From assembly GCA_947628345.1 (NCBI GenBank), contig CANQZM010000001.1:2534-66533 (forward strand): a DNA stretch of 64,000 nucleotides, given 5' to 3'. Each line of letters starts with the position of its first letter. Position 1 is the first letter of the stretch. Below, one piece after another: positions 23,258 to 44,557 of the stretch. The notes beneath the pieces are model-generated. The model saw only the letters and a list, made by a program, of their open reading frames with translations. It ran no database searches and was not told where the DNA came from. The translations under genes and the position numbers were made by a program. This DNA is from an uncultured Bacilli bacterium (GTDB taxonomy: Bacteria > Bacillota_I > Bacilli_A > RF39 > UBA660).

Positions 23258-23287
23258 AGATAAATAGAATATAACTATTAGATTTTT

Positions 23288-25297
23288 TTATTTTATTACA
23301 TCTTTTCTTTTACCATCTATAATGACGTATTCTTCATTGACTTTAGGATCAAATACATAAGTAGCTTCTTCTGTGTCACTATTACTATCTTCATTTATTA
23401 AATTATTTTCTTTCTTTATAGAATTTTGATTATAGTTAAAAAATATTCTTTCTAATTTATTTTTTATTTCTTCTTTTGTAAATGGTTTTGCTATATAATC
23501 AATAAAACCTTCTTCTTCATACCTTTCTTTAGCACCTGATACTGCATCTGCAGTTAGTGCTATTACTGGAATATTAAAATCTTGATCTTCTTTTAATTTT
23601 CTTAAAGTAGTTTCTCCACTCATTTCTGGCATCATAATATCCATTAGAATTAAATCATATTTTTCGCCTTTGTTAATCTTATCTAGGCATTGCTCTCCAC
23701 TTTCACTCTCGTCTACAATATATCCTAAACTCTCTAAATGTTTTCTGGCTACTTTTATATTTAATTTATTGTCATCTACTACTAATACTTTCTTATTACT
23801 ATTTTGTTTCTCATAGATATCACTTGACTCTGGTTTTATAATTTCTATTTCGGTTTGTGATGTATTTTGATTTTCCTGTATTGGGTTTACCATTTTGCTT
23901 ATTTTTTGAGGAATTTGTACTACAAATATCGAACCCTCTCCAAATTGAGATTGCACATTAATATGCCCTCCCATCATGTCAACTAAGGCTTTAGTAATTG
24001 CAAGTCCTAATCCTGTTCCTTCGGTGGTTGTATTTTTTTCCACATCAAGTCGTTCAAATTTAGTAAATAATTTATTGATATTTTCAGCTTTTATTCCTCT
24101 ACCTGTATCTTGAACACTTATGATTAACATACATTTATCATTTTGATTGATACATTTTGTATTTAAGGTTATTGTACCTTTTTCGGTATACTTAATTGCA
24201 TTGGTAAGTAGATTATTGGCAATTTCTTTGATATGAGCCTTATCTCCCAATAACTCACAAGGAATATCTGGAGCAAAATTTATTTTAAAGTCAATTGGTT
24301 TATCTCCAATTCTAGTTGCTGTAACACGTGCCATTTTTTCTATTTCTTCTACATAATTATATGGTATTTCTACTATTTCCATTTTTTCACTTTCGATTTT
24401 GTTTATATCTAAAATATTACCTACTATTTCTAGTAATGTTTGAGATGCATTTTGAATATCTTCTGTATCTTCAATTACTTCTTTTGGAACTTGTTCTTTA
24501 TAACTTGCGATATCCTCTGAAAGTCCTACAATTGCATTAAGTGGTGTTCTAATCTCATGTGACATACTAGATAAGAAATCACTTTTAGCACGATTAGCTT
24601 TTTCTGCTGTATTTTTTGCAAGTTCCATTTCTCTTAACATCTTTAAATCAGGATTTTCTATTGTAAAATACATTAACAAAACAATAACAGACTCAACACA
24701 ATCTATTATTACAATATCAGGATATTGATTCTGTATGATTATTGATATTGTCGCACCAATCATAAATAAAAATAATGGTAAAGCTTTCTTTTTATCCAAT
24801 TTATTTAATTTTGTTAATATAATAATAAATAATAATATTGAAACTATACCTGATAAAGTATATATTACTTTAACATCTAATCCATGTGTATAAAAAATCA
24901 TTTTATCCATATTTATATATATCTCTTGGGGTAAAAAATATAATAGTATATATATAATAATTGTAGTAACTAATAAACATTTTACGTATACATCCTTATA
25001 TTTCAAATTAGAAATTATACATAAGTATGCAAGTAATAAGGTACCATATGCAAAATAATAAATTAGATATGTTTTTAGTACAAATGTTGATATATATAAT
25101 GGCAAGAAATTATAATTGTATGATACATAATCAGCAAGTAAATGAAATATTAATCCAATTAAATTTAATATTAAAAGTAATCTATATAGTTTATTTTCTT
25201 CGTTATTAATCCTTTTTTTAGAAAAATATATAAATGAAAGCCCTATCATAAATAAGATACATATTATTACAGCAAATGTCATTTTAGTTATAACCAT
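23288..25297 (-). CDS. Hybrid sensor histidine kinase/response regulator with N-terminal multi-TM sensor domain
   Basis: H-box SHEIRTPLNAI, HATPase_c G-boxes, C-terminal receiver (LVVDDN...DLILMDIMMP). Confidence 0.8.
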   Translation of the reverse strand: MVITKMTFAVIICILFMIGLSFIYFSKKRINNEENKLYRLLLILNLIGLIFHLLADYVSYNYNFLPLYISTFVLKTYLIYYFAYGTLLLAYLCIISNLKYKDVYVKCLLVTTIIIYILLYFLPQEIYINMDKMIFYTHGLDVKVIYTLSGIVSILLFIIILTKLNKLDKKKALPLFLFMIGATISIIIQNQYPDIVIIDCVESVIVLLMYFTIENPDLKMLREMELAKNTAEKANRAKSDFLSSMSHEIRTPLNAIVGLSEDIASYKEQVPKEVIEDTEDIQNASQTLLEIVGNILDINKIESEKMEIVEIPYNYVEEIEKMARVTATRIGDKPIDFKINFAPDIPCELLGDKAHIKEIANNLLTNAIKYTEKGTITLNTKCINQNDKCMLIISVQDTGRGIKAENINKLFTKFERLDVEKNTTTEGTGLGLAITKALVDMMGGHINVQSQFGEGSIFVVQIPQKISKMVNPIQENQNTSQTEIEIIKPESSDIYEKQNSNKKVLVVDDNKLNIKVARKHLESLGYIVDESESGEQCLDKINKGEKYDLILMDIMMPEMSGETTLRKLKEDQDFNIPVIALTADAVSGAKERYEEEGFIDYIAKPFTKEEIKNKLERIFFNYNQNSIKKENNLINEDSNSDTEEATYVFDPKVNEEYVIIDGKRKDVIK

Positions 25298-25355
25298 ATT
25301 ATCACCTACAATTACTACTGTAATTATTGTAACATATAAATTAAAAAAAGAGAAT

Positions 25356-27245
25356 TTATTTTCTCTTTACCTTTTCCTTATTTTCTAATAAGTTTGATTT
25401 ATCTATATAAATAAATCCTTCTGTTTCTTTTGACAAAAATTCTGTATCTCTTTTTCCTGATGGTTTATATGGAAAATTATTTCTAATTTTAAAATACATT
25501 GGTACCATATCAATATTATTATATTGCTTATATAATATTTCTTGAAATTCGGATAATCTATTTGCTAGTTGTTCATAATCTTTATATTTATCCTCAAATT
25601 CTTTAGCAAATATGATATGTAACCCTAAATCTTTTGAACCATTTTCATTAGGTTTTCCAATGCAATCACAATCAGTAACATCAGTTAAAGATCTAATTGG
25701 CGTTTCTATATCAAAATTATATATTTTCTTATCATTTACTATTGTATAGTCTTCTTTTCTTCCCTCTACAAATAAATCGCCATTTGAAGCCATATAACCA
25801 ATATCTCCAGTACAATTCCATTTACGTCCATATTCATCATAATGAAAATATTGGTCTGTAGCTTCTTTATTATTAAAGTATTCTAACATTCCACAAGGAG
25901 TATTAACTAATATATTACCTCTTTGTCCATATTTTAATTCGTTAAAATCATCATCAAAGATAGAAACAATAACACCAGGAATAGGTAACGCTACTGAACC
26001 TATATGGTGTTCAACATATTGAGATGGACTAGTAACAGTAGCTCCGCACTCACATTGCCCATATCCAGCAGTTAACTTTGAGTTACAGCCCATTTTCTTC
26101 CAGTTTGCCTCTATTTTTTCTTTGACTTCACGGGATAATGGTTCTCCTCCTTCAAATGGATTGCCTAAGTGTGTTAATTTTTTACCTTTAATTAACTTTT
26201 CATCAAGAAATCCTTCATACATACTGGTTGGAGCAACAGTATAATCAATTTTATGCTTAATAATGTTATTTACAAATACATCTCTTTCAAATCTAGGATC
26301 TTGAAATACAATTAATCCACTATGTAATCCAAGATGAATAGATGTATTTAACCCAGTTGAATACCAAGGTGGAATTATTTGATACATTTTTTCTCCTCTA
26401 TTTAAATCAAATTTATTAGCATTATAAGATAATACCGAATTTTGAAAACTATCATGTGATAAAACGATAGCCTTAGAAGCACCAGTAGTACCAGATGAAT
26501 ATACCATACATAATGGATAATCTTTTTCATATTCAAAAGTTTTAGGTATTGCTTGATATTTACCATCCTTTATAAATTGATTCCACCACAATTCATTAGC
26601 ATAATTAATTTTTATTTTATCTTTACTAGTAATAAATCTTAAAGGGCTAGAATTTAGAGTTGGTATGACGATAACCTTCTTTATAGATGATTTATCTATA
26701 GCACTTTTTATTTGTGGATAAAATGTATCCATAACAATCAAAGTATCACTATTACATTCTGCTATTCTATCTATCATTTGATCGTGTTCAAAATATGGGG
26801 CCATTAAATTAGCTACAGCTCCAATTTTAGCAAGAGCATAAACTGAATAAACAAGTTCTGGTATACCAGCACAACAAATAGTAACATAATCTTTCTTTTT
26901 AATTCCATATTCGACAAATGATTTTGCTGCTTTATCGATATTATTAAATAACTTCTGATACGATATATTAGCAAAGAAAAATTCAAGTGCTTGTTGATTA
27001 AGATAGTTCTTATTATTATAAATTATATCTTGATAAATTGTCATGTTGTTATTTATATCATAAAATTTATCCATATTATAATGATTTTGCCATGGTCTAT
27101 CAATAGTTGGATAACCAGTGTTAAAATCAAATGTTTTCCCAATATTAATATCTTTTAATATTTCTTTTTTCTTTTCTTCATTGATATGTTTAGAATTAAT
27201 TACTTGTCTTTTTAATAATTCAAGTTCTTTTATTTTATTATTCAT
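25356..27245 (-). CDS. AMP-dependent synthetase/ligase (acyl-CoA synthetase-like)
   Basis: AMP-binding motif YSSGTTGASKAI. Confidence 0.7.
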   Translation of the reverse strand: MNNKIKELELLKRQVINSKHINEEKKKEILKDINIGKTFDFNTGYPTIDRPWQNHYNMDKFYDINNNMTIYQDIIYNNKNYLNQQALEFFFANISYQKLFNNIDKAAKSFVEYGIKKKDYVTICCAGIPELVYSVYALAKIGAVANLMAPYFEHDQMIDRIAECNSDTLIVMDTFYPQIKSAIDKSSIKKVIVIPTLNSSPLRFITSKDKIKINYANELWWNQFIKDGKYQAIPKTFEYEKDYPLCMVYSSGTTGASKAIVLSHDSFQNSVLSYNANKFDLNRGEKMYQIIPPWYSTGLNTSIHLGLHSGLIVFQDPRFERDVFVNNIIKHKIDYTVAPTSMYEGFLDEKLIKGKKLTHLGNPFEGGEPLSREVKEKIEANWKKMGCNSKLTAGYGQCECGATVTSPSQYVEHHIGSVALPIPGVIVSIFDDDFNELKYGQRGNILVNTPCGMLEYFNNKEATDQYFHYDEYGRKWNCTGDIGYMASNGDLFVEGRKEDYTIVNDKKIYNFDIETPIRSLTDVTDCDCIGKPNENGSKDLGLHIIFAKEFEDKYKDYEQLANRLSEFQEILYKQYNNIDMVPMYFKIRNNFPYKPSGKRDTEFLSKETEGFIYIDKSNLLENKEKVKRK

Positions 27246-27692
27246 ATTTCACCTAAACTCTTTCTAATTTCTAATACCGCTCGAAATTAATTTGTATTAT
27301 AATAAGTCAAAATCTATTTGTCAATATTAAGTTTTTTTTCTAAATTAGCTTCATATCGTTCTTTTTGTGTTGTAAACAAATCATCTAGTACAGATAAGTA
27401 ATTAAAATCAGCAAAAGTATTGATTAAAGAAGAATGACAATCAATTAAAGTATAATCATAATTTTTTTATATTTTTTAAACAATTTCTCAATATTCTTTG
27501 TCTATTCATAGCACTACATTAATTAAACTTAAATCCATTGCAAATAAATTTAAACTTGCTAGAATTAAATAAATATTTTTTGCATGATGCAAAATGATTG
27601 CTGTGAGTTTATATAACTACCATTTATAGGTGTTGAGATAGTAGTATATTTTTTTAAACTCTAGTAATTCATATATATAGTGTTAATCTAAA

Positions 27693-27719
27693 AATACACT
27701 TCCAGATGGAAGTGTATTC
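27693..27719 (-). terminator. Perfect hairpin AATACACTTCCA-GAT-GGAAGTGTATT followed by a T-run on the minus strand (downstream of the MMPL gene)
   Basis: Read directly. Confidence 0.5.
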
Positions 27720-27741
27720 GGTAAATCTTTTTTTCAACATT

Positions 27742-30700
27742 TTACTTTTTAGTTTCTTTATAATAACCTTTTCGACAAATTAATTTATCTGTGGTAGCTA
27801 ATACACCAGGTAATAGAAATAATATTAATACTACTGCTGCAAATGTACCTTGTGAAATAGTTTCACATATTTTAGCAGCAATTGCTGAGGCAAAGTTAGC
27901 TACTACTAGTGTTACAATAACTAATATAGAAGAAGAACTAATAATAGTGTGAATAGACTTATTATAAGCATTAATTATAGAATTTTTAATATTCATAGTC
28001 AATCTAGATTCTCGATAATAGGATGTATAAACAATTGCATAATCTATAGTTGCTCCCATAAGTATTGCTTGAACAATCAATAAAGATATAAAATACTCTG
28101 AACCCCCTGTTAATGAAATAGCACTCATTGTAATATAAACAGCTGTTTGGATAATTAACACTAAAACAAATGGAATAATTAAATCTTTAAATGTTATTGC
28201 CACTACAATAAATATAAAAATCATTGTTAATATAGTAATTTTATTCAATTCGTTATTAAATGTTTTACTCATTTCAACTGCCATAGGAGAGTTCCCTACT
28301 ACATAAACATCATCATTTTTATCAACTTTACTTTTTATTCTATTTACAAACTTATAGGTATCTTTATCTTCAAAAGCATATTTTGTATTAAGTACCACTC
28401 TTGAATACTTATCTGAAACAATTAATTTTTTTGATTTATTAACTATTTTTTTAGCATCAGTTATAATAGTTCTTTTTTCATTATCAATAAAATTATCAAA
28501 TTTACTATCTTTTAAAATATTAACATTTAAATAATTAATAAATTCTTCAATAGTCATCTTCCATTTTTCATTATATTCTCTATTACTTCCATAATACATA
28601 TAAACTAAATCTAATAGAGATTTATCTAAGTTATTACTTAAAATACTTAATGTTTTAAAAGCTTCTGTTGTACTATATTTTATATTATTTATAGAGTTAT
28701 CCATTAAATCATTAATAGTAGTTAATTTCTGCTTTTTAATATCATCAAAACTAGAAGCATATTCCTTATTATTCATAACATCTTTAATAATAAAATCAAC
28801 ATAATTATATAAAGAAATAGCTTGATTAGATTGAATATATTTGGAATTATATAAACTAAATAATAATTTCGTTATATCATTATCAATACCTAGTAGTGAA
28901 CTTAATTGTGAAGATGTATATTTTATTTGGCTTATGGTCGAATTCATAACTTCTTTTACCAAAGATAATTCATTGACTGATGAGGTAGATAATTTTCCTT
29001 TTAATAATTCATTTTCCTTATTATTCAATATTAAGTTTACAAATTCTAAAGGTGTTAATGTGGTTTGTTGATGATAGTAATCATAAGCACCAAATATCAT
29101 ATTTACTGTTGATGCATTAGTAATTGTTATAGTACTTATTTCTTGGTAATTATAAACTGTATTAGTATTATTGACTAATAGATATGCTAAGTTTAAAGTT
29201 TCATTTTTTTCAACTAAGTATTGAGCTAGTAATGGATTATTTTTATTTTCATAAAGAAAGTTAATTAAATTTTTAATAGATATCTTTACGTTAGTTAAAT
29301 TATTAGCATCATGATATCCATATATTACACTTATAACACTTTGATTTATATTTGGATTTAATGATGATAAAGCTATTACTAAATCACTCATCTTATACTG
29401 TGTAGTAGCATTTTCCATAATATATTGAGCAACTTTTAACTCTGCTATTGTATCTGATAATTCTTCATTGGATGATATTATAGTTAATACTTTATTTACA
29501 AAATCTTTAGGAGTCAAAGAAGTATCAAGAATATATTTATCTAATAACGATTGTACTGTTGGATCTATCTCAAACATTGAATATAGTGATGACTTTGGTA
29601 ATGATGTTTTATAATAAGTAGTTAATTTTGGAATGTTCGTTAAAAGTTTTTGCACCTTAGAATCACTAAAATAAGATTGATAAGTCGGATTTTTCGCAAT
29701 TTCTTGGGCAGCATTAGCAAAGTCATTTAAAGTTAATAAAGTATTTGAATAATATCCTGTATAGCAATAATATAAAAGTGATATAGAGTCATTATCTAAA
29801 CTAATCCCTAAATTATCAAGACTCTTTTTCATATTATCCTTATCTAATTCAACATTTATATTCTGATTATTACTTAAGGTTTGTAAAATAGTTAATTTTT
29901 GAATAGACTTATCATCAAACATATTTTTATAAGCTGCATTACTAGACATTTCTAGAGCAAAGGTAGAAAATTCATTTAATGTCAATTTAGTATTACTTTC
30001 TATTGTGGTTCTATAAAACAAGAATAATTGTTCTATTAAATCTTTATCTATACCAAAAATATTAGCTAGTTCTTGAGAAGTCATTTTTTTATTTATTTTA
30101 GAAAAATCAGTAAAACTTTGTAATTGTTTTAATTTAGAAATCGTTGTTTTATCTAATCTTGTTGAATATTTTGGATCATTAGCTACATCATTAAGCATAA
30201 AATTTACAAATTCTTTAATTGTCATAGTAGTATTTAAATTTTTACTATTATAGTAAATTAAAATATTTTTAGCATCATCTTCATTCATACCTAAAATTTG
30301 GGCAATTTCTTGAGTAGTTCTTGGTTTAGTTATTAAAGATGCTGAGGTAAAGTTTTCAAGTAACTCTAAATTATCTTTTGTTTCCTGATTTAAAGAATTA
30401 TTAAACTTATTATTAGTATAAATATCTGATTTAATAAATGAAATAAACTCATTTAAAGTCATTTTATTGCTTTTATCTTGATTATAATAGTTATAGTAAA
30501 TAAGTTTAATTAAGTAATCATCTATTTCTACATTTTGTCCTAAATCTTTAAATTTCTTATTTAACTCATCATAAGCTAACTTTTCATTGATTGTATTAGA
30601 ATAGCACAATACTTGATCTATTTTTTGATCTTTTTCTAATTCTTTACAATACTTAGAAATTATATCTTCATATTTATTATTATATACAATAGCTATTTGA

Positions 30701-31821
30701 TTGGTAGCTGGAAAAACTTTACCTACTTTATCTTGTTCTGAACCCGTATATAAAATATTAATATTTCCTTTTAATAAATAAGATAATACAAACAATACTA
30801 ATAATAAAGAGGCTTGAATAAATCTAGTTTTATATATAATTCTACCTAATTTAGTTAAATTAAAATTAGGAGCTTTTTTCTTGGTTTTAGCTATTAAATC
30901 ATCAAAAATTAAAAGTAAAGCAGGTAAACAGAAAAATATACTTACAAGACTTAATAGAACTCCTTTAGCAAGGACAAAGCCTAAATCTTTACCAATTGTA
31001 AAACTCATAAATACAAGTGCAATTAATCCTACAATTGTTGTAATAGAACTACTAGATATAGATTTAAATGATTGATATAGAGCTTCTTTCATGGCTTCTA
31101 TTTTATTAGAATGATTTTCTTTTTCCTGTTTATATCTATTTGATAACATAATAGAATAATCCATAGACAAGGCTAATTGTAAAATAGCTACAATAGAATT
31201 TGTTATTGAAGAAACACTATCAAACATAATATTAGTACCTTTATTGATAAATATAGCTATTCCAATGGAAATTAAATATAACCATGGTTCAACATAAGAT
31301 TCACTGAGTATTATTAATATAATCATTGCAAACGTAATAGCAAGTACAACAATCCATAATTGTAAAATAGGTTTGTTTTCATCATAAATTGAACCACTCA
31401 TTCCCGCAGTCTTAAAATGATTTTTAACATCATTGTAAACGTTTGTTGCAGTTTTAGATTGTGCATAATCATCTACATTCAAAACATATAAAGTATAATT
31501 CTTTTGATTATATTGCTTCGTATCTGCATAATCAACAGAACTTACTCCATTAATATTTTTTAATTTCTTTAGGATATCTTTTTTTTCATTACTAGAAAGT
31601 CCTTTAAACATAACATTCAATATAGAAGAATCTTGTTCAATAAATTCTTTTTCCATAATATCTTTACCAATTTTGGTTTCAGATGTCGCTGGTAAATATT
31701 TCATAATATCTTCATTGATATCAACCTTGGTTGAAAAATATAAACCTACTGCTGCTAAAATAATAAATAATGATAAAAAGAAATATCTTCCTTTCACTAT
31801 AAAATCTGTGATTTTTTTCAT
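27742..31821 (-). CDS. MMPL/RND-superfamily membrane protein with a giant extracytoplasmic insert of about nine ~75-aa tandem helical repeats
   Basis: Two multi-TM MMPL-like halves flank about 800 aa containing repeated modules (L/M)T(L/I)xEFxxF...KLxxLQ...S..EL...GID.D....L..YY; start MKKITDF at 31821 with RBS GAAAGGAAGGA. Confidence 0.65.
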   Translation of the reverse strand: MKKITDFIVKGRYFFLSLFIILAAVGLYFSTKVDINEDIMKYLPATSETKIGKDIMEKEFIEQDSSILNVMFKGLSSNEKKDILKKLKNINGVSSVDYADTKQYNQKNYTLYVLNVDDYAQSKTATNVYNDVKNHFKTAGMSGSIYDENKPILQLWIVVLAITFAMIILIILSESYVEPWLYLISIGIAIFINKGTNIMFDSVSSITNSIVAILQLALSMDYSIMLSNRYKQEKENHSNKIEAMKEALYQSFKSISSSSITTIVGLIALVFMSFTIGKDLGFVLAKGVLLSLVSIFFCLPALLLIFDDLIAKTKKKAPNFNLTKLGRIIYKTRFIQASLLLVLFVLSYLLKGNINILYTGSEQDKVGKVFPATNQIAIVYNNKYEDIISKYCKELEKDQKIDQVLCYSNTINEKLAYDELNKKFKDLGQNVEIDDYLIKLIYYNYYNQDKSNKMTLNEFISFIKSDIYTNNKFNNSLNQETKDNLELLENFTSASLITKPRTTQEIAQILGMNEDDAKNILIYYNSKNLNTTMTIKEFVNFMLNDVANDPKYSTRLDKTTISKLKQLQSFTDFSKINKKMTSQELANIFGIDKDLIEQLFLFYRTTIESNTKLTLNEFSTFALEMSSNAAYKNMFDDKSIQKLTILQTLSNNQNINVELDKDNMKKSLDNLGISLDNDSISLLYYCYTGYYSNTLLTLNDFANAAQEIAKNPTYQSYFSDSKVQKLLTNIPKLTTYYKTSLPKSSLYSMFEIDPTVQSLLDKYILDTSLTPKDFVNKVLTIISSNEELSDTIAELKVAQYIMENATTQYKMSDLVIALSSLNPNINQSVISVIYGYHDANNLTNVKISIKNLINFLYENKNNPLLAQYLVEKNETLNLAYLLVNNTNTVYNYQEISTITITNASTVNMIFGAYDYYHQQTTLTPLEFVNLILNNKENELLKGKLSTSSVNELSLVKEVMNSTISQIKYTSSQLSSLLGIDNDITKLLFSLYNSKYIQSNQAISLYNYVDFIIKDVMNNKEYASSFDDIKKQKLTTINDLMDNSINNIKYSTTEAFKTLSILSNNLDKSLLDLVYMYYGSNREYNEKWKMTIEEFINYLNVNILKDSKFDNFIDNEKRTIITDAKKIVNKSKKLIVSDKYSRVVLNTKYAFEDKDTYKFVNRIKSKVDKNDDVYVVGNSPMAVEMSKTFNNELNKITILTMIFIFIVVAITFKDLIIPFVLVLIIQTAVYITMSAISLTGGSEYFISLLIVQAILMGATIDYAIVYTSYYRESRLTMNIKNSIINAYNKSIHTIISSSSILVIVTLVVANFASAIAAKICETISQGTFAAVVLILFLLPGVLATTDKLICRKGYYKETKK

Positions 31822-36305: not shown

Positions 36306-36399
36306 AAAACTTAAAGCCTCCTGTCAATAATATTTAACTGTATTATACTATTTAATTTTTTTTTGTCAAATTTATGCTTTACAAATTGTGATTATCAAG

Positions 36400-36700
36400 C
36401 GAAAATTTCCCAACTATTATTGTGAATAACTTGACCTGTCATATAACTAGAATCATCTTCATAAAATTATCTCTTTTTACATCACTAGTACCAGTTATTC
36501 CATCATCTACATATTCTATTATATAAGTCCATTAGGGATTTTTCTTTATATTCTCCTAATGTTATTGAATTCTTTTAAGATATGTTCTTCTGTATATTTG
36601 AACATTTTATATGATATTTTTTGTTCATCAAATAGTTGTTTGTTTAAAAAAGCTACTTATAATACTATTTCTGTATCATTAAATTTTATATTTTCATCTT
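36400..36700. repeat. Degenerate, internally deleted second copy of the right end of the upstream island: SDR 3' end, recombinase 5' end and recombinase upstream region
   Basis: 36405-36455 matches 32590-32640; 36456-36560 matches 35028-35130; 36562-36690 matches 35287-35415; all near-identical by eye. Confidence 0.6.
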
Positions 36701-36806
36701 TCATAATATTTCTCATCATGAAGTCCCCTTTAATTAACATTATGAAATTTAAAATAAAACAACACTAATAAAAAACAGTACCTACCCTATAAAGTACTGT
36801 TTATTT

Positions 36807-38117
36807 TTATCGTTTTCTTGTATTAGAATCATTAATTAATCTATCTAACTGTTCGTTATTAATATATATTACTCTACCTCCAGCAGGATTAATTATACGA
36901 TTGCCAAACACTACCCATATTGCATCCATTGGTGTATTTGGCATACTAGCTGCTCCATCTGTGAAAATCACTTTGTTTTCTACACGTTTAGAAAATGCAT
37001 TTATTGCGACTTCAAAGTTAGTACCTCCACCACCAGAAAAAGATAAATTATCAATATCTGTTATATTTTTAATTTCTGAAAAACCATAAAATTTTGTATC
37101 AAAACAGCCTACTTTTACTTTAGATACACTTAAAATATTTTTACATTCTCTTAAAAAATTTCTAAGGAGCGTTTTATTAATAGAACCACTAGTATCTAAA
37201 AGTATTTCTGTTTCTGGATTTGGTAATTCTTCTAAATGTGCGGTTAAAACTCCATCTTCTATACTAGCATTTTGGTATGACCAATCAACATCATATTTAA
37301 TAGCCTCCTTCAATAACTTGCGCCAGTCTAAAAGAGGATTTGCTATACCGATATCACTAATAGTTATTTTGTCACTATTTGTTTTATTCCCATAGCCATG
37401 TGATTCATTTACTAAAGATTCTCTAAGTTCTTCTAATCGTTTTTTGTATTCTATTCGATTTTGTTGATATCCTTCCCTTTCTCCTAATTCAGTAAGTTTG
37501 TTAATAATTTCTTTTTTCTGCTTACTTAATGAATCGTTCATAGGTTCATTATTTTGGGAATTTTTATCATAAGCTTTGGACCATAGTTCGTGAGTGTCAT
37601 GCCCAACTTTATTTATCTCTTTTTGTACTTTAGATTGTCCAGTAGAATTTGACTTTGTTTCAGAATTATTTTGATTATTTGATTGTTCTTGATTGTCTGT
37701 TTGATTACTAGTATTTTCTTTTTGTTCTTTCTTTTCTTGTAAAAGTTTTTGATAAAGCTCCTCGACATCATAGTTTCCGGCATAAGGAATATCAATTGCA
37801 CCTTTAATTAGTGGTAATCCATCTTTTTTTAAATTAGCATTTAATACTCCATCAGCAGCCATATTCCATATTTCAGGATCTTTATCTTTGCACCTTTCGA
37901 TATGATTATAACCTATATGCCCAAGTTCATGAGCAAATACAAATATTTGTTCATCAGCAGTAAGATTTTTTAAAAATTCTGGATTATAGTAAATATTATC
38001 ACCATCAGTTGCAGCCGTTTCAATTGATTTATCAGAAATAAAGCAAGTGTTAGCTATGATACTTCCAAATGGTGAATATTTTACTAATAATCTTCGTTTA
38101 ATATAATCTATATCCAT
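36807..38117 (-). CDS. DUF2201-type protein: N-terminal putative zinc metallopeptidase (HExxH) plus C-terminal VWA domain
   Basis: FAHELGHIGYNH HExxH motif; MIDAS-like DTSGS in the C-terminal half; usual partner of AAA_5 MoxR ATPases. Confidence 0.7.
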   Translation of the reverse strand: MDIDYIKRRLLVKYSPFGSIIANTCFISDKSIETAATDGDNIYYNPEFLKNLTADEQIFVFAHELGHIGYNHIERCKDKDPEIWNMAADGVLNANLKKDGLPLIKGAIDIPYAGNYDVEELYQKLLQEKKEQKENTSNQTDNQEQSNNQNNSETKSNSTGQSKVQKEINKVGHDTHELWSKAYDKNSQNNEPMNDSLSKQKKEIINKLTELGEREGYQQNRIEYKKRLEELRESLVNESHGYGNKTNSDKITISDIGIANPLLDWRKLLKEAIKYDVDWSYQNASIEDGVLTAHLEELPNPETEILLDTSGSINKTLLRNFLRECKNILSVSKVKVGCFDTKFYGFSEIKNITDIDNLSFSGGGGTNFEVAINAFSKRVENKVIFTDGAASMPNTPMDAIWVVFGNRIINPAGGRVIYINNEQLDRLINDSNTRKR

Positions 38118-38125
38118 ATCTAATG

Positions 38126-38527
38126 TTAAATTTGTACAAGCAAAGAATATACTTCATCATTTATTTTTCTAGTATTTAAATCTAAGCAAGTAACAATCAC
38201 TAAACAATTTTTAGGTAATTCAAATGTAGCTATTTTCTTATATTTAAGTATTTCAATAAATTTTACTTGTTCATCTTCATCTACTTCATTTATATTATCA
38301 ATAATCAAAATAGTATAACTTTCTTTACTTTTGTCAATTAACTCTTTATACCAAGTTGGAGGACAAAAAGTCGTTTCTTCATAATGTCCATTTAACTCTT
38401 TTTTATCTATGTTAGCTTTTAGTATTATTGAATTTTCAAAAGCCACAGAAGGTACACCTGGTATAAGTAAATTGCAACCACCCATTTCAATATATTTTTC
38501 TAATAAATCCAATCTTTCTTGACTCAT
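38126..38527 (-). CDS. Hypothetical protein (133 aa) between the MoxR-like ATPase and the VWA/peptidase gene
   Basis: ORF only; overlaps the upstream gene by 4 bp (operon). Confidence 0.4.
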   Translation of the reverse strand: MSQERLDLLEKYIEMGGCNLLIPGVPSVAFENSIILKANIDKKELNGHYEETTFCPPTWYKELIDKSKESYTILIIDNINEVDEDEQVKFIEILKYKKIATFELPKNCLVIVTCLDLNTRKINDEVYSLLVQI

Positions 38528-40128
38528 TTTTTTATACCTCCTTGTGATAAATTATCAGCCATTTGTAATTCACTCAAATATTCTAATCTGCTTTCATCAC
38601 CATGAGTCCACATAGATTCAAAGGCTGCTTTTGGTTCTGCTCCGACCCGTTTCATAAAATCCCGTACTACTGAAAAGTTTTTATCATCAACTGAAGATAA
38701 TCCAACAGCTGTTGCAAATTTTTGAGCTGTATCCATTTCAAAATCTTCATCTGAATAATTATGGTTTAGCACATCTTCAACACTTATTACGTATTGACTT
38801 GTAAACCAAATAAAATCAGATGTTAAATCCTCTCCAATTAAAGCCCGTAACATTTCTGGTTGTTTGGTTTTATATAGTATTTTAGAAGCCAATTCCCATT
38901 TACGGGGATCTGCATTAGGTTTTTTACCAGTAAATGGTGTTCTTAATACATCTTCTCCACTATATGATTTATAAGCTATATATGCATAAATAGATGGATG
39001 AATTTTAGCATTTGGTTTTTCTACATCATAATTTAATCTTTCATAATTTTCTTCTGGAGTAGTCGCCCATTTTAACCAACTATTAACAGTTGTATTAATA
39101 TAAACATGAGCAAATCTATTATATAAAGGTTCTGCCAATTGATTGGCTGCTAAAGAATCCTCTAGATCATTTCCAGCCGCTACTATTCTAGCATTAGGTG
39201 GTAGTTTCCATATACCATTAATTTCTTTATCTAAAACTATATTAAAGGCCATTCCTTGAATTGAAGGAAGTGCGTTGGTAAGTTCGTCAAAAAATACAAT
39301 GTGAATTTTATCCGGTTCTTTTTCACATTTTTCTTTTATTTTAGAATACCAAGTAGGTGGTATATCAATCATTTCCCCTGTTGTAGCATTATATACACTT
39401 TTGCCATTTAAACTATCTGGAGTAGCATTTCTCATATATATAATTTCGCATTCTGGATCAAATTGTTTTACTCTTGCTGACTTACCATCACCAGATTTAC
39501 CATGCAAAAATATAGGAACAGAACTTTCTAAAGCACCTCTAATAATCTCTTCTTCTGTTACACGACTAAAATCAAAGCCATAAGGATTCCTTTGCCTTTT
39601 TGATTTAGTATTATTTAGGTTGTCTAATTGATCTAAATTCCTACTGGTAGGAATTATTTCCTTTGAAAAAAAAGTATCCGTATATTTATTTATATCTGTT
39701 TTACTAAAATCACCACGATAATTATTATCATTTTGAAATTGAACACCTGCAAAAAGAATATATTTAGCAAGAGCTACATCTTTTACTTTATCAACTAACC
39801 ATATAATAGGTTCAACCTTAATCCAATATGGTTGACCTACAATTATTGTTGTACCATTAGATAGTTGGTCTCCTGCACTATTAGTATCTGCAGTAAAACG
39901 AATATACTTACTACCATTATATACGTATTCTAAAAATTCACGTTTTTTAAATTGTTCATTATAACTATCATATGCTACTGAATCAGTTGTATATTTTTTT
40001 CCTGTGATTTTTGAATCTAAAATACCATTATTATAAGCTTGTTCTAATATATCTTGCTTAGATTGTTCTTCAACCCACTGAGGGAATTCTCCATATTGTA
40101 CTTCAAGAATTCCTTGGCGACCTCTCAC
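38524..40128 (-). CDS. MoxR-like AAA+ ATPase (AAA_5) with about 200-aa unknown N-terminal domain; no own ATG start for about 230 codons; in frame with the DGR VR ORF upstream
   Basis: Walker A FLHGKSGDGKSARV, Walker B IVFFDEL, sensor AAGN. The ORF is open in frame upstream to the TAA at 40207-40209 within the VR. Only a GTG without RBS at 40128. Confidence 0.7.
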   Translation of the reverse strand: MRGRQGILEVQYGEFPQWVEEQSKQDILEQAYNNGILDSKITGKKYTTDSVAYDSYNEQFKKREFLEYVYNGSKYIRFTADTNSAGDQLSNGTTIIVGQPYWIKVEPIIWLVDKVKDVALAKYILFAGVQFQNDNNYRGDFSKTDINKYTDTFFSKEIIPTSRNLDQLDNLNNTKSKRQRNPYGFDFSRVTEEEIIRGALESSVPIFLHGKSGDGKSARVKQFDPECEIIYMRNATPDSLNGKSVYNATTGEMIDIPPTWYSKIKEKCEKEPDKIHIVFFDELTNALPSIQGMAFNIVLDKEINGIWKLPPNARIVAAGNDLEDSLAANQLAEPLYNRFAHVYINTTVNSWLKWATTPEENYERLNYDVEKPNAKIHPSIYAYIAYKSYSGEDVLRTPFTGKKPNADPRKWELASKILYKTKQPEMLRALIGEDLTSDFIWFTSQYVISVEDVLNHNYSDEDFEMDTAQKFATAVGLSSVDDKNFSVVRDFMKRVGAEPKAAFESMWTHGDESRLEYLSELQMADNLSQGGIKK

Positions 40129-40169
40129 TTCGTTCGAGGCGATTTTAGAGATTAAAGAGTAAGGTATAG

Positions 40170-40243
40170 CTGGGCGAGCTCCAACATTACGTCCATTAAC
40201 ATCGCTTTAGTCCCTATCACCATTATCATCAACCGCGCGCGCG
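40170..40243 (-). other. DGR variable repeat (VR), 74 bp
   Basis: Identical to 41747..41820 except 8 positions, all of which are adenines in the other copy on the minus (sense) strand (7 A to G, 1 A to T). Differences fall on positions 1 and 2 of AAY codons in one frame. Confidence 0.85.
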
Positions 40244-40455
40244 TATCCGCTATCCGGTGTTTTCGTCCACCAAGCTCCTGTTCTGTCTTTTAAATTATTT
40301 CCTTCATTAGTATAACATGTTGATGATACATACCCACCAAGTAATATAGAAAAATCTGTTATAGCACATTTAGTTCCATATTTTTTAAACATGTCTAATC
40401 GATTTTCACTAAATATTTGATCATTCTCTAAGAATGTAAAGTTACTCATATACAT
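40207..40455 (-). CDS. Small ORF (about 80 aa) whose 3' end carries the first half of the VR; ends at a TAA inside the VR; likely the N-terminal part of a DGR target fused or read through into the MoxR-like ATPase
   Basis: MSNFTF...LLGGYVSST...GAWWTKTPDSGYARAVDDNGDRD*; RBS GGTGA before ATG 40455. Same frame as 38524..40128, separated only by a TAA that is also present in the TR. Confidence 0.5.
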   Translation of the reverse strand: MYMSNFTFLENDQIFSENRLDMFKKYGTKCAITDFSILLGGYVSSTCYTNEGNNLKDRTGAWWTKTPDSGYARAVDDNGDRD

Positions 40456-40499
40456 CACCAATTATATAATAACATACTTTTAATTTGTATAAATAAATT

Positions 40500-41567
40500 T
40501 TAAATTTCCTTTACAAAAATTATGTCAAGTTTAAACTTGATACTTTCATGAGTTATTTTTATGTGATTATAAAAAGCATTTTTTCTTTGAAATATATATT
40601 CTTCATCAACTATTCCTTTATTATATAACTTATTTAATGTTTTTATATGTTTTTTCATTCGTTGTTTTGATGATGCTCGCAATTTTACTATGATTTTCCC
40701 AGTATTACTTAAAATATGCCTATAGCCCAAAAAATCTATACCATTTTTTAGTTCACCTATTTGTGTTTTTTCATTAAGTTTCAAATCTAAAAATTGCTGA
40801 CAAAATGATTCTATTTCTTGCTTACATTTAACTAAATAACCCTTATCTCTATGAATTAAAATCATGTCATCCATATAACGTACATAATATTTTATTTTTA
40901 ATTGCTCCTTTATAAAATGATCTAACTTATTTAAATAGAATAAAGCAAACCATTGACTCGATTGATTACCAAGTGGTAAACCTCTAGTTGCATTATCTGG
41001 CTGTTCTTTAATTATTTTTCTGATTATCCACATTTCATCATCAGAAAAATTTATCTTTTCTAACATTCTTAGTAATATATCATGATTTATACTAGGAAAA
41101 TATTTTCTAATATCACACTTTAAAAAATATATTTTATTGTTTTGATTCTTAAAATATTCTGTTCTTAAAAATTTATGTAGTCTTTTTATTGCAAAAGTTG
41201 TACCTTTTTCTTTTCGGCAAGCACAGTTATCATATATTAATCTTTTATCTATTTTAGATTTTAAACACACATCACAAAAGCATCTAATTACCACTCTATC
41301 TTTAAAAGGTAAGGCTTCTATTAATCGTTGTTTTGGCTCATAAATGTAAAATTTTTTATATTTGCCCAATTTATATTTTTTAGTAGTTAATTCTTTAATT
41401 AAAATATTTAAATTAATTGCTAAATTGGACTCAAATCTAATGACTTCACCCTTGTGTTGTTTAGACTTTCTACAATTTTTATATGCATCATATAAATTTT
41501 CAAAAGTAAAAATTTCATCTAAAGTCATACTTACCTCCAAAAAATAAACACTCCTTATAACGCCCAA
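40500..41567 (-). CDS. Diversity-generating retroelement reverse transcriptase
   Basis: RT motifs: FYIYEPKQRLIEALPFKDRVV, FLKCDIRKYFPSI, DGR-specific motif 4 LGNQSSQ ((I/L/V)GxxxSQ), catalytic YVRYMDD, thumb FLGYR. Flanked by TR and VR. Confidence 0.85.
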   Translation of the reverse strand: MGVIRSVYFLEVSMTLDEIFTFENLYDAYKNCRKSKQHKGEVIRFESNLAINLNILIKELTTKKYKLGKYKKFYIYEPKQRLIEALPFKDRVVIRCFCDVCLKSKIDKRLIYDNCACRKEKGTTFAIKRLHKFLRTEYFKNQNNKIYFLKCDIRKYFPSINHDILLRMLEKINFSDDEMWIIRKIIKEQPDNATRGLPLGNQSSQWFALFYLNKLDHFIKEQLKIKYYVRYMDDMILIHRDKGYLVKCKQEIESFCQQFLDLKLNEKTQIGELKNGIDFLGYRHILSNTGKIIVKLRASSKQRMKKHIKTLNKLYNKGIVDEEYIFQRKNAFYNHIKITHESIKFKLDIIFVKEI

Positions 41568-41746
41568 AGAGTTATTAAACTCATTGTTTGTGTGAGTGTT
41601 TTAATTCTTCCACCGCACTAAGTATAAACTTTTAGCGGTTAGAAAAGAAGAAAATTCCTTCACCTTACAATACTGATATATCTTATATAAAATATATTTC
41701 TCTGATCTGTTTTCTGAATCTATAAAAAATTCCTTCAAAAGTGAAT

Positions 41747-41820
41747 CTGGGCGAGCTCCAACATTACGTTTATTAACATTGTTTTAGTTCCTATTACCAT
41801 TATTATCTACCGCGCGCGCG
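41747..41820 (-). other. DGR template repeat (TR), 74 bp, about 180 bp upstream of the RT gene
   Basis: See VR: carries A at all 8 mismatched positions; AAY-rich in the VR coding frame; begins with (CG)5 and ends with GGAGCTCGCCCAG in sense orientation. Confidence 0.85.
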
Positions 41821-41895
41821 ACCAAAAGCCACGAAAAAACACAACGCTCTAAAAATAAATTTTCTTCTTAATTAAAGGCCTTTCAACCTAAAATC

Positions 41896-42480
41896 CTAAT
41901 TCTTTTTTTTCCATCTATTATCATCACTTTTTTTCCAGGCAACAATTAAGTTAATTACTTCTGCTAATTGCATTGATATCTGCTTATATTGTTTTAATAA
42001 AATGCACCCACAACTTTGCGCTAACATTGCTATATAGCCCAATAATTTTAATTTAACAATTGCCTCTTTTTGATAACTTTCTCTTTTTAATTTATTTGCA
42101 GAAGAATCCATTCTAATAAAATTTGTTTCTAGTAAATTTTCGATTGTATCTAAACAGTAGTTTTGCATTCTATTAACAAATACTCCTCTAAATTTTTTAG
42201 GTGATTTTTCTGTTACTGTAATTACATAGGAGCATAATTTTTTAGCTACTGTAATAACAACCAATTCATTGGCATTATAAGGTATTTTCTCGATTGTTTT
42301 TAAATCTTGATCATCTGCCTCTACTCTTTCTTTTACCCTTTTTTCATAAAACTTTGAATTTTCCGCCATAGCTATTCCCTTTTTTATTGCTATAACATCA
42401 TCTATACTATTTGCTTTTTTAGTAACAACATTAATTTCTTTAGGAATTTTTAAATTCTTTGCTCTACTAACTTGTTCCAT
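41896..42480 (-). CDS. avd: Avd-like accessory variability determinant (four-helix-bundle, 23S rRNA IVS protein family) with N-terminal extension
   Basis: Position immediately upstream of TR-RT (canonical avd-TR-RT order). C-terminal ~120 aa resemble Avd helices (IPKKFRG..., LKLLGYIAMLA...). Confidence 0.55.
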   Translation of the reverse strand: MEQVSRAKNLKIPKEINVVTKKANSIDDVIAIKKGIAMAENSKFYEKRVKERVEADDQDLKTIEKIPYNANELVVITVAKKLCSYVITVTEKSPKKFRGVFVNRMQNYCLDTIENLLETNFIRMDSSANKLKRESYQKEAIVKLKLLGYIAMLAQSCGCILLKQYKQISMQLAEVINLIVAWKKSDDNRWKKKN

Positions 42481-42602
42481 GATACCACAGCCTTATTTAT
42501 AATTAATATTAACAAGCAAGTCACTATCATTATAACAGAAAAAATACAACTTTATTTAAAGTTTACATATTTTATAATTATTAGAAAGACATCTTTGTAT
42601 TT

Positions 42603-43672
42603 AAAAACAAGCTTAACGGCTTGTTTCCTAAATTGAAATTTCAACCGCACCACTAGGTGCGGCTTTTTGATACAATAAAGGAGCCAATCCCGGCAAGGAG
42701 GCTCCTATATGAATTATAAACAATTAACTAAAGAAAAGAAAGCACAAATTGATATTTTACTTGAACAAGGACTATCTATGAGAAAAACAGCTGAAATATT
42801 AGGAATATGTCATTCTACTATCTCTAGATATAAAGCTAATATTTATAAGAAAAGAAAAATAGATATTCATGAAAAGTATGATATTTTTATGCATTATCTA
42901 TATACACACTATGATTATAAAACTTGTTCTATTGAAGTTTGTGTTCATAAATTTAAAAAGACTCATTTAAATGCTAAAAGTCCATCTGTTAAACAAGTAT
43001 ATAATTGGATAAATGAAGGTAAAATTAAACTTAATAAAAAAGATTTATGTTATAAAAAACGAAGAGGAAAGAAAACATCAATGATGAATCATACAAAATG
43101 GAACATAGATCACAAAACTGTACTTCCAATAAGCTTAAGACCTAAATATATCAATAAAAGAGATGAATTAGGACATTTAGAAATAGATTCTATTTTAGGT
43201 AAAAGAAATGAATATGATTCAGTTATTTCTATAGTAGATAGATGTTCAAGAAAAGTATGGTTAATAAAGTCTGAATACAAAAATGAATACTATACAGATA
43301 AAATTATATATGAATATATAATAAGAAACGAAATAAAAGTAAAATCCATTACTGTAGATAATGGATTAGAGTTTCAAGCTTTAGGATTAACAGCTAAAAA
43401 GCTTGGAGTAAAACTATATAAATGTGATCCATACTGTTCCTTTCAAAGAGGAACCAATGAAAGGACCAATGCTTTAGTAAGAAGATTTATTCCAAAAGGA
43501 AATTCTATGAAGAATGTAACACAGTATTATCTAGATAATATTAGTTTTGAAATAAACAGTATGCCACGTAAATTATTTGACTATAAATGTGCTTATGATA
43601 TAGAATTAAAATATAAATAAAATGGTGCGGTTGAAATTACAATAAAGAAAAACAAGCTTAACGGCTTGTTTT
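42603..43672 (+). mobile_element. IS30-family insertion sequence (about 1.07 kb). Ends carry inverted repeats ...AATTTCAACCGCACC/GGTGCGGTTGAAATT... and identical 24-bp hairpin elements AAAAACAAGCTTAACGGCTTGTTT
   Basis: Single DDE transposase ORF with flanking repeats read directly; exact termini uncertain. Confidence 0.6.
42709..43620 (+). CDS. IS30-family transposase
   Basis: N-terminal HTH (LSMRKTAEILGICHSTISRY), DDE region, 303 aa. Confidence 0.75.
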   Translation: MNYKQLTKEKKAQIDILLEQGLSMRKTAEILGICHSTISRYKANIYKKRKIDIHEKYDIFMHYLYTHYDYKTCSIEVCVHKFKKTHLNAKSPSVKQVYNWINEGKIKLNKKDLCYKKRRGKKTSMMNHTKWNIDHKTVLPISLRPKYINKRDELGHLEIDSILGKRNEYDSVISIVDRCSRKVWLIKSEYKNEYYTDKIIYEYIIRNEIKVKSITVDNGLEFQALGLTAKKLGVKLYKCDPYCSFQRGTNERTNALVRRFIPKGNSMKNVTQYYLDNISFEINSMPRKLFDYKCAYDIELKYK

Positions 43673-43677
43673 ATAAA

Positions 43678-44433
43678 CTATTTTATAATAGATTCTAATG
43701 CCAGAGTAATCATATCATTTAGGCTTTTTTCTCGTTCTTCGCCACTTAAAACTTTTTTACTATATTTTGAATCTACTGCAGTCAAAATACAAGCTGCTTC
43801 TTTTTCAAAATGATTTGCTATATGAAATAAACCAAATGCTTCCATTTCCTCTGCTACTACATCTAAGTCTTTAGGGATTCTATTTAATACTCTATCATAG
43901 TCAATATATGGACCAAATACATCCATAGTAGTTATATCTCCAACATGAAGTTTATAATTTAATTCTTCTGCTGTTTCCATAATAGTATTATTTAAAGAAT
44001 TTGAAGGATAAGTAACATGCCCTTCATAATTATCAAATGTATAAGCAAAATTTGACTCTGAATAAGATCTATTTGCTAAAATAAGATCAGGCACATTTAT
44101 AGTTGGTTTTAATGCTCCACATGTACCTATTCTGATAATTTTTTCAACGTCAAAGTAATGAAATAACTCAAAAGCATAAATACCCATACTTGGCATTCCC
44201 ATTCCTGATGCCATAACAGTTATTCTAACCCCTTTATAAAATCCTGTATAACCTAACATATTTCTCAAATTGGCAACATTCTTATTATCTATTGTAAAAT
44301 TTTCTACTATTGCATCATCTAAGAAAGTTTCTGCAATATATTTAGCTCTTAATGGATCTCCTGGCATTAATACAAGTGGAGCTATATCACCTTCTTTTGC
44401 ATTAATATGGATTGGTTCTTCTCCTATAAACAT
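43678..44433 (-). CDS. deoD: Purine nucleoside phosphorylase, DeoD-type
   Basis: Near-identical N-terminal segment to E. coli DeoD (VLMPGDPLRAKYIAETFLDDA...GMGMPS). Confidence 0.85.
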   Translation of the reverse strand: MFIGEEPIHINAKEGDIAPLVLMPGDPLRAKYIAETFLDDAIVENFTIDNKNVANLRNMLGYTGFYKGVRITVMASGMGMPSMGIYAFELFHYFDVEKIIRIGTCGALKPTINVPDLILANRSYSESNFAYTFDNYEGHVTYPSNSLNNTIMETAEELNYKLHVGDITTMDVFGPYIDYDRVLNRIPKDLDVVAEEMEAFGLFHIANHFEKEAACILTAVDSKYSKKVLSGEEREKSLNDMITLALESIIK

Positions 44434-44557
44434 AATTATCGCCTCCTAATTATAATTTTAACAAACTTTTTTAAGTTATAATATATTTTTAATTGATTAT
44501 ATACATTATTAGACACTTTTTTAGTAATATTAGAAACTTCTTATTGTTGCATTAAGA

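Follow-up and report, generated by a model that had tools for sequence, protein, structure and literature searches.

Several bacterial elements that interrupt a gene and bring their own recombinase have been described, like the island gin in gerE of B. cereus ATCC10987, which is served by the large serine recombinase (LSR) GirC and the recombination directionality factor (RDF) GirX (PMC5595907). Here we analysed a 64,000-nucleotide stretch from an uncultured Bacilli bacterium (contig CANQZM010000001.1, positions 2,534 to 66,533, called the window in the following), in which the genes for the binding protein (sbp), the ATPase and the permease of an ATP-binding cassette (ABC) transporter form an interrupted operon. 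It is highly probable that two unrelated islands, each placed by its own LSR (LSR1 and LSR2), interrupt this operon and that island 1 is composite. We establish the junctions, the att architecture, the site specificity, the horizontal spread, the within-species polymorphism and the module boundaries of these islands. They belong to an already known kind, site-specific LSR island insertion, and are essentially ordinary members of it.

With gin, island 1 shares the position of a non-phage island in a short coding region, an att site formed by imperfect inverted repeats around a central dinucleotide and a strain-variable cargo; gin was also read by its authors as a composite of different elements and its transfer route is unknown (PMC5595907). 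The sporulation-programmed excision of gin was shown by experiment, whereas the present islands are known from sequence alone. In addition, gin has three recombinases and a developmental regulator as target, while island 1 has one recombinase plus the scar of a second and a transporter gene as target (PMC5595907). The elements skin, SPbeta and skinCd (SpoIVCA, SprA-SprB and CD1231-CD1234; PMC4191935, PMC5499854, PMC5025042) likewise interrupt a gene precisely by means of an LSR, and the gene can be restored exactly. A small RDF sets the direction of the reaction in these systems. These elements derive from prophages and are bound to the mother cell, whereas the present islands have no phage genes except a diversity-generating retroelement (DGR), are polymorphic and are spread horizontally over many species.

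Staphylococcal cassette chromosome (SCC) elements, SCCmec and composite SCC with CcrAB or CcrC, are similar as cargo islands at one att site, as composites that form and decay and in their often internal recombinase. However, SCC enters rlmH at its 3' end and leaves this gene undamaged, using CcrA plus CcrB or CcrC. LSR1 and LSR2 are not of the Ccr type, as they reach 83-96 bits against NCBIfam CcrB and CcrC (best scores 96 and 93) with cut-offs of 900, and each island has one recombinase gene. As to tandem elements with an att site between them, as in SCC, the window has the scar of a second LSR but no internal attP, and one relative (L034, see below) has an internal attP and an LSR remnant. 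The fragmented nif genes of heterocystous cyanobacteria (XisA/XisC/XisF; Calothrix NIES-4101, PMC11249958) are comparable in that one cluster is cut by several recombinase-bearing elements, but these are vertically fixed and excised in terminal differentiation, and no such programme is known for the present islands. The LSR catalogue of Durrant et al. 2022 (PMC10083194) is similar in the general rule that LSRs enter conserved genes and in the central dinucleotide, which alignment of att sites allows to deduce.

The split transporter operon and its att junctions

The 5' open reading frame (ORF) of sbp, 22634-23257, has 207 codons, of which codons 1-197 encode an NMT1/SsuA-type protein (Pfam NMT1, E 2e-19). 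Homology stops at E197 (base 23223), and the last ten codons (DSAIIITLYH*) have no counterpart in homologues and are read-through into inserted DNA. The frame picks up again at 44558 (...E-PNATEVEQQGYGHVVASVG...), with P198 at 44561, and ends, in overlap with the ATPase start (44952), at the stop codon 44960-44962. Joining of E197 and P198 gives a 330-aa protein without a gap at the joint, which matches intact 330-aa proteins with 85-88% identity across 100% of the length. Full-length alignments with 79-88% identity were obtained to over 100 intact proteins, which have 329-334 aa. The initial annotation had read one ABC binding-protein gene cut by a large insertion and had named fragments of different paralogues as the finding that would speak against it. 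Since the rejoined protein matches a single orthologue gap-free and full-length, the two-paralogue objection falls and the reading is borne out.

Intact sbp-ATPase-permease operons, which had been suggested as a check, are present in the relatives L001 and L003, where the intact protein P0013 sits in an uninterrupted locus running from pilin/sortase genes to sbp, ATPase (249 aa) and permease (266 aa). Comparison of L001 with the window by blastn gave three collinear blocks (19233-23223, 44558-45369 and 55761-56856). Insertion 1 in sbp extends from 23224 to 44557 (21,334 bp). Insertion 2 (~10.4 kb) follows ...LSGGMRQRV in the ATPase gene and extends from about 45370 to 55760. Of the limits assigned earlier to insertion 1 (23258-44557), the right one is exact. 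The left one had been set behind the stop codon of the read-through tail and is therefore displaced by 34 nt to the right. The blastn blocks also bear out two insertions in one operon, but the order implied by "successive" cannot be told. Discontinuities in GC content or codon usage, proposed as a further check, do not appear: GC is 0.25-0.28 in every block (26% for the whole window) and GC3 is 0.08-0.21 throughout. The features of the operon, of the two insertions and of the recombination module are as follows.

22634-23223, plus strand: sbp 5' fragment, codons 1-197; the ORF reads on to the stop at 23257 inside the element
44558-44962, plus strand: sbp 3' fragment, codons 197/198-330, running into the ATPase start
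44952-45369, plus strand: ABC ATPase 5' fragment, codons 1-139, ending in the LSGGMRQRV signature; ORF stop at 45374 inside insertion 2
55761-56880, plus strand: ATPase 3' fragment and permease; core repeat 55761-55770, ATPase codons to 56102, intact permease 56089-56880
23200-23250, plus strand: attL of insertion 1; B arm (...GACTTTGTTACACTATTC), GA at 23222-23223, P' arm (GGATAGTGCAATAATAATTACTCTC)
44518-44575, plus strand: attR of insertion 1; P arm (...AGAAACTTCTTATTGTTGCATTAAGA), GA at 44558-44559, B' arm (ACCTAATGCTACAG...)
33568-35271, minus strand: LSR1, 567 aa; Resolvase, Recombinase and Zn_ribbon_recom domains, YARVSTDS motif
35273-35452, minus strand: conserved 59-aa ORF, 1 nt before the LSR1 start; the Shine-Dalgarno region of the LSR1 start overlaps this ORF
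35601-36305, minus strand: orf234, part of the minimal 2.9-kb element (L021) together with the small ORF and the LSR
45370-55760 (approximate), no strand: island 2, ~10.4 kb, with LSR2 in terminal position

The sequence around the crossover is ...TTATTT-GA-ACCAAC... in the empty attB of an intact relative, ...CTATTC-GA-GGATAGTGCAATAATAA... in attL and ...TTATTGTTGCATTAAGA-GA-ACCTAAT... in attR of insertion 1, and GA is the sole sequence common to attL and attR of the window. On the element side the two arms form an imperfect inverted repeat, in which TGCA stands at a distance of 6 nt from GA in both arms. The aligned junctions of relatives (38 attL and 35 attR) gave the attP consensus GTGACTTCTTATTCTTGCACTAAGA-GA-ACTTAGTGTAAGAGAATGAAGTCAC. 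In most of these loci GAAC is common to attB and attP, whereas in the window it is GA alone. For island 1 we reconstructed attP as ...TTGTTGCATTAAGA-GA-GGATAGTGCAAT... and attB as ...CTATTYGA-ACCTAATGC...; the corresponding reconstructed junctions are ...GTTACACTATTCGAACCTAATGCTACAG... (attB1) and ...CTTATTGTTGCATTAAGAGAGGATAGTGCAATAATAAT... (attP1). GA is taken as the probable crossover dinucleotide because it is shared by both junctions and is the centre of the attP symmetry. These junctions and the empty attB sites replace the core GAG[G/A]A, which had been proposed before, by GA. Judged by its arms, the junction layout of island 1 is the attP architecture of an LSR. At insertion 2, attL and attR have a common 10-bp core, CAAAGAGTTG, at 45360-45369 and 55761-55770. 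Its P and P' arms are inverted (GTGTCT...CATT / AATG...AGACAC), and the symmetry CATTCAA-AGAG-TTGAATG is again centred on GA; attB and attP are identical over 10 bp.

LSR1 was recognized by PF00239 (1e-31), PF07508 (1e-20) and PF13408 (1e-8), and its catalytic domain matches PDB 3g13 (E 9e-39), with YARVSTDS aligned to YCRVSTDS and the catalytic serine kept. LSR2 (54108-55718, plus strand, 536 aa) has the same three domains plus DUF4368 (26.4 bits, cut-off 25). The two proteins are 24% identical and both match the integrase family phrog_95 (about 1e-103 to 1e-105). LSR2 has a terminal position, as usual, with its 3' end 42 nt from attR. The distance of LSR1 is 10.3 kb to attL and 9.3 kb to attR. 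It is likely that LSR1 and LSR2 catalysed the insertion of their own islands, and the domain set and the att architecture support the earlier suggestion of a serine recombinase as the agent. The 59-aa ORF is 70-88% identical in at least 14 loci (59-64 aa in relatives) and is a candidate directionality factor or regulator. Neither this ORF nor orf234 matched a Pfam or PHROG family.

Each island would have entered by conservative attP x attB recombination within coding sequence, in the case of the island-1 family at sbp codon E197 with crossover at the central GA; the small ORF and LSR1 would form the core of this family. With the LSR domain set, an inverted-arm attP with a 2-bp centre and exact restoration of the target at a shared site, both islands have all sequence features of LSR integrative elements and are classified as such, their activity and directionality factor being predictions. 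As sequenced, sbp and ATPase cannot be produced, and the permease is intact.

The substrate of the transporter was not indicated by a riboswitch or other RNA, as an Rfam scan of the window gave no match, and sbp gave only sub-threshold SsuA/Sao/Tau-like matches in NCBIfam. One 90%-identity cluster of 332-aa sbp proteins also includes 679-aa RagB/SusD proteins of Bacteroidota, which is probably a clustering artefact.

Relatives, mobility and the operon as a target

For the distribution of island 1, relatives of LSR1 were collected in one scan of species-representative genomes. It gave 76 loci, all in uncultured gut metagenome-assembled genomes (MAGs) labelled Bacilli, Mollicutes or Tenericutes. 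In 38 fetched loci an LSR1 homologue (54-94% identical) adjoins an sbp 5' fragment that ends at the same codon, and 35 of them also have the corresponding attR and the 3' part of sbp. The LSR 3' end is found ~50-60 nt from attL in most relatives, whereas in the window 10.3 kb of cargo lie between them. The relatives have the 59-64 aa ORF directly 5' of the LSR, followed by 0-7 kb of variable cargo up to attR, including ImmA/IrrE-like and DUF4411 proteins, an HD protein, RhuM and a hydrolase. The smallest element (L021, 2.9 kb) consists of the LSR, the small ORF and orf234, and island 1 of the window is the largest copy among the fetched loci.

Pairwise identities of LSR1 and sbp in 24 genomes are not correlated (Spearman 0.11, Mantel p 0.24), and LSRs with 96-99% identity occur in hosts with sbp only 49-61% identical. 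Ancient vertical inheritance of island 1 was rejected on this basis. The lack of co-divergence indicates that the LSR1 family moves horizontally and integrates independently. The sole hint of transfer genes is a MobC-like ribbon-helix-helix ORF, recognized by eye in the cargo of the relative L012. At L029:13144-13734 the sbp 5' fragment is opposite in orientation to the rest of the operon, which suggests an island-associated inversion.

In addition, 16 interrupted sbp alleles (the window and 15 relatives) were rejoined in silico and an exact match was sought in ~15 billion proteins. Three of the rejoined alleles exist as intact proteins, the L014 type on at least 1000 contigs (longest 1.37 Mb), the L012 type on 4 and the L007 type on 2. 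Truncated N-fragments of the same three alleles occur on 7, 12 and 6 contigs, respectively. The presence of intact and truncated forms of the same alleles therefore demonstrates a presence/absence polymorphism within species and confirms the junction to the residue. The island-1 family passes horizontally among uncultured gut Bacilli species, with its presence varying within species.

Island 1 and island 2 are not the only insertions in this operon. On tblastn maps of the relatives' loci, other LSR genes were located at sbp codon ~147 in at least seven loci (L018, L020, L021, L028, L043, L044, L061), at permease codon ~208 in at least five (L006, L009, L016, L041, L042) and possibly at sbp codon ~70-78 in L043. 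These additional LSRs are 25-35% identical to LSR1 and LSR2. On these maps, the sbp-ATPase-permease operon is a landing pad for 4-5 LSR families. It is known that distantly related LSRs can converge on the same target gene (PMC10083194); there it concerns one gene, here at least four sites inside a single three-gene ABC operon. The enriched targets stressed in that catalogue are Mg-chelatase/ATP-dependent-protease and DNA-competence genes, and the term "ABC transporter" is absent from the main text of the paper (PMC10083194).

The state of the interrupted genes was assessed in ~40 loci, among which stop codons were found in just one sbp and one permease fragment. L004 (CANRKG010000003.1), a rabbit-gut MAG with an LSR 94% identical to LSR1, is the closest relative of the window. 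The dN/dS of the split fragments between the window and L004 is 0.02-0.11, the same as against the intact L001. The earlier description of the operon as inactivated holds for the sequence as it stands, but the fragments are intact and, with this dN/dS, interrupted rather than decayed. Both LSR genes and all four att sites are intact, so that excision may still occur. The intactness of the fragments is compatible with recent independent integration, which is supported by the polymorphism, and also with reversible excision. Divergence between the window and L004 is a mosaic: dS is 0.7-0.8 in the left flank (pilin and sbp 5' fragment), 0.09-0.37 in the island-1 genes, 0.11-0.30 in the sbp 3' fragment, ATPase and permease, and 0.8 (0.81) in LSR2, and the cargo of island 2 differs between the two. 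Because of this mosaic and the differing island 2, dN/dS does not decide between integration and excision. The pattern suggests transfer of a large segment by homologous recombination and a later replacement of island 2.

Like gene-intervening elements, the islands interrupt a coding gene and carry inside a recombinase that should in principle be able to rejoin it; the stable vertical association with the host that marks such elements is lacking, as the uncorrelated identities and the polymorphism show. It is nevertheless conceivable, although unlikely, that they are domesticated intervening elements or reversible switches like skin, SPbeta, gin and the heterocyst nif elements, and that the operon is turned on by RDF-dependent excision of both islands. 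This would agree with the split fragments that are intact in nearly all of the ~40 loci, with the intact LSRs and att sites, and with a large share of contigs in one species that carry interrupted alleles. The window and L004 share a scarred island, yet the dN/dS of their fragments is as low as against the intact orthologue, and the conserved small ORF lies directly 5' of LSR1, which recalls the pairing of small RDFs with GirC or SprA. However, LSR1 and sbp do not co-diverge, and given the presence/absence within species, recent independent integrations account just as well for fragments that are intact. The island shared with L004 may itself have moved horizontally, as the flanks differ in dS (0.7-0.8 left, 0.1-0.3 right), and no excision product was seen in an attP scan of JGI metagenome contigs and IMG/VR. 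To our knowledge there is no differentiation programme in these organisms, which also counts against a switch. An extension to the whole landing pad, with up to 4-5 LSR families, each at its fixed site in sbp, ATPase or permease, acting as reversible switches and purifying selection maintained through RDF-controlled excision, is similarly doubtful. If true, it would be an intervening-element system outside sporulation and heterocyst development, in gut commensals with small genomes.

The modules of island 1

In the preferred reading, island 1 is one integrated element with accreted cargo. Pfam and NCBIfam confirmed the genes listed for the 21.3-kb block in the initial annotation, i.e., hybrid histidine kinase, AMP-binding ligase, MMPL, TetR, SDR, LSR, AAA/VWA, reverse transcriptase (RT)/Avd, IS30 and purine nucleoside phosphorylase. 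Besides the recombination module, the following features were distinguished.

23288-27245, minus strand: cargo module 1; hybrid histidine kinase 23288-25297, AMP-binding ligase 25356-27245
27742-33493, mixed strands: cargo module 2; MMPL 27742-31905 (minus), TetR 31958-32521 (plus), SDR 32573-33493 (minus)
36407-36775, minus strand: scar of a second SDR-LSR-small ORF unit, ~370 nt, also in L004
36777-42592, minus strand: DGR/VWA block, absent from L004, with the next six features
36807-38117: DUF2201 metallopeptidase-VWA, with a 133-aa ORF next to it
38524-40128: AAA ATPase (phrog_1297)
40207-40461: 84-aa ORF bearing the variable repeat (VR, 40161-40243) at its end
40500-41567: RT (RVT_1, 8e-18)
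41738-41820: template repeat (TR) of the DGR
41896-42480: Avd (bAvd 1e-5, below the Pfam cut-off)
~42634-43643, plus strand: IS30-family insertion sequence (IS); transposase 42709-43620 (NF033563, 201.6 bits, cut-off 80)
43678-44433, minus strand: deoD-like purine nucleoside phosphorylase, cargo adjoining the P arm; also in L004 and L039

The comparison with L004 separates these modules. L004 shares 27665-36775 (93.8% nucleotide identity) and 43648-45394 (92%) with the window and lacks about 23247-27664, with the kinase and the ligase, as well as 36776-43647. The kinase-ligase block (about 23266-27664) is absent in L004 but present in contigs of the same species as the window. The MMPL-TetR-SDR genes are common to L004 with ~94% nucleotide identity and form one layer with LSR1, the small ORF and orf234 (27665-36406). 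The repeat-rich MMPL protein has 1387 aa in the window and 1359 aa in the same-species contig L086 (14554-18633), a length variation of the repeat region.

The scar consists of three pieces: 52 nt of an SDR 3' end (36407-36458, 92% to 32585-32636), 113 nt covering LSR1 codons ~45-83 (36451-36563, 92% to 35023-35138) and a small ORF with its upstream region (36546-36775, 80% to 35273-35512). The deletion joints between them fall at short microhomologies. Inspection by eye of 36306-36406, which separates orf234 from the scar, revealed nothing that convincingly resembles a P or P' arm. The origin of such a scar is illustrated by L034, the only one of the loci in which a local regex search detected an internal attP. 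At L034:880-960 an intact P-GA-P' follows RhuM cargo and ~40 nt from the 3' end of an LSR gene and precedes a complete small ORF-LSR unit. Read from this order, L034 is a tandem array attR-E2-attP-E1-attL from which the second LSR was deleted, and the scar in the window may be the remnant of a similar tandem fusion or of a duplication. In L039, deoD is located directly upstream of the LSR, which would fit an arrival of deoD with the second, now dead unit.

The DGR has an RT, an Avd and a TR/VR pair that is 86% identical and differs, in the matching core, at TR adenines, as typical for its class. No homologue of the genes of the DGR/VWA block was found in the other 80-odd loci. The IS, which is absent from L004, has a transposase, terminal inverted repeats (TTGAAATTTCAACCGCACC / GGTGCGGTTGAAATTACAA) and a target duplication and is assigned to the IS30 family. 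On both sides of the IS stands a copy of the terminator-like hairpin of deoD, a direct duplication of 24-30 nt (AAAAACAAGCTTAACGGCTTGTTT; 42603-42632 / 43648-43677). Target duplications of IS30 elements typically have 2-3 bp, which is far shorter. With its long flanking duplication the IS presumably resembles IS1630 of Mycoplasma fermentans.

Island 1 can be divided into the layers kinase-ligase, MMPL to orf234, scar, DGR/VWA, IS and deoD with the P arm. It would have grown by accretion between LSR1 and attL, first of MMPL-TetR-SDR and then of kinase-ligase; another LSR unit of related type, acquired by tandem fusion or duplication, would have brought deoD and decayed to the 370-nt scar, and the DGR/AAA/VWA block and the IS would have been added as well. 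The composite nature proposed earlier is thus retained, but its boundary at 35.5 kb is not. The island has five or more layers, and its outer ends represent both arms of the same attP-type site.

The initial annotation had suggested at least two nested or tandem elements, an island of 23.3-35.5 kb and a DGR block of 35.5-44.5 kb; read as independent neighbours, LSR1 would stand at the right end of the first. The internal position of LSR1, the scar of a second LSR and the separable modules would agree with two such neighbours. However, an att-like junction is lacking at ~35.5 kb, 27665-36775 is one contiguous block with 94% identity in L004, and orf234, just beyond the proposed boundary, belongs with LSR1 in the minimal element L021. 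Moreover, the DGR block ends at about 36777 and 42592 instead of 35.5 and 44.5 kb, and the outer ends are matching arms of a single attP, which makes this layout very improbable.

Some observations weigh against the view of two mobile LSR islands with a composite island 1. For the species of the window itself, no intact sbp or ATPase was found among the ~15 billion proteins (the best intact sbp has 88% identity), all contigs found carry the insertion, and the insertion may be fixed there. No relaxase, conjugation, phage structural or lysis genes were detected by Pfam and PHROG in islands 1 and 2. The degenerate attP pattern matched no free, plasmid- or phage-borne attP in JGI metagenome contigs and IMG/VR. 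As the regex search found no internal attP in the window, a tandem fusion is here indistinguishable from an internal duplication of SDR-LSR-small ORF, and the reading does not account for the entry of cargo beside the att arms.

The junctions recur in other assemblies of the same strain lineage: the junction of the sbp 5' fragment with the kinase in four independent ones (L086-L089), the stretch from deoD over the sbp 3' and ATPase 5' fragments to the CDF gene of island 2 in the independent assembly L090, and the stretch from LSR2 over the ATPase 3' fragment to the permease, 100% identical, in L081 and L082. Although the source contig is probably metagenome-assembled, the chance that the split is an artefact, through pieces of different paralogues, mis-assembly or a binning chimera, is negligible, because the same junctions occur in independent assemblies from different runs, synteny is kept on both sides and a single 330-aa orthologue spans the sbp junction gap-free.

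Island 2 and significance of the locus

The cargo of island 2 (45426-53690) comprises genes for a CDF transporter, NAD kinase, NrtR, NadD, NadE, a Nudix protein, PncB and a PncA-like isochorismatase, a predicted near-complete set for NAD salvage and biosynthesis. In 11 loci the LSR2 site is filled. One of them is L002, which has the identical sbp as strains in which this site is empty. The site lies in the ABC signature/Q-loop-proximal motif (LSGGMRQRVA), which is common to many ABC ATPase paralogues. DUF4368 was tied to multi-targeting LSRs by Durrant et al. 2022 (PMC10083194); LSR2 has this domain, yet its relatives occupy one fixed site in the 11 loci. Island 2 can be described as a terminal-LSR island which carries NAD-salvage genes and is located at one fixed position of the ATPase, within the ABC signature region.

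In L010 an NrtR homologue is found outside the operon. The strains L080 and L083 (94-97% identical) have other DNA left of window position 55743. Just 3' of the permease, a Bro-N/anti-repressor-like gene (56945-57859) is located, with a ~69% identical paralogue 3 kb further on (~60263-61279). Island 2 itself contains, at 46373-46600, a 75-aa fragment that belongs to a related family (phrog_8036).

LSRs with defined sites are sought as tools for genome integration. For two uncharacterised LSR families of gut Bacilli, exact attB, attL and attR are now given together with the inferred attP and central dinucleotide. The loci also display a growth path from a 2.9-kb minimal recombinase unit to a 21-kb island with a two-component kinase, a lipid-type exporter, a DGR and an IS. 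The well-defined att sites, the unusually clear accretion history and the landing pad for several LSRs make the locus of moderate interest. For annotation, the operon should be described as interrupted by mobile islands and not as pseudogene debris, and the NAD-salvage genes as island cargo. If the NAD genes of island 2 are the sole copies of the genome, a core cofactor pathway of this organism would ride on a mobile island, inserted in an ABC operon that is identified here as a recurrent landing pad of LSRs.

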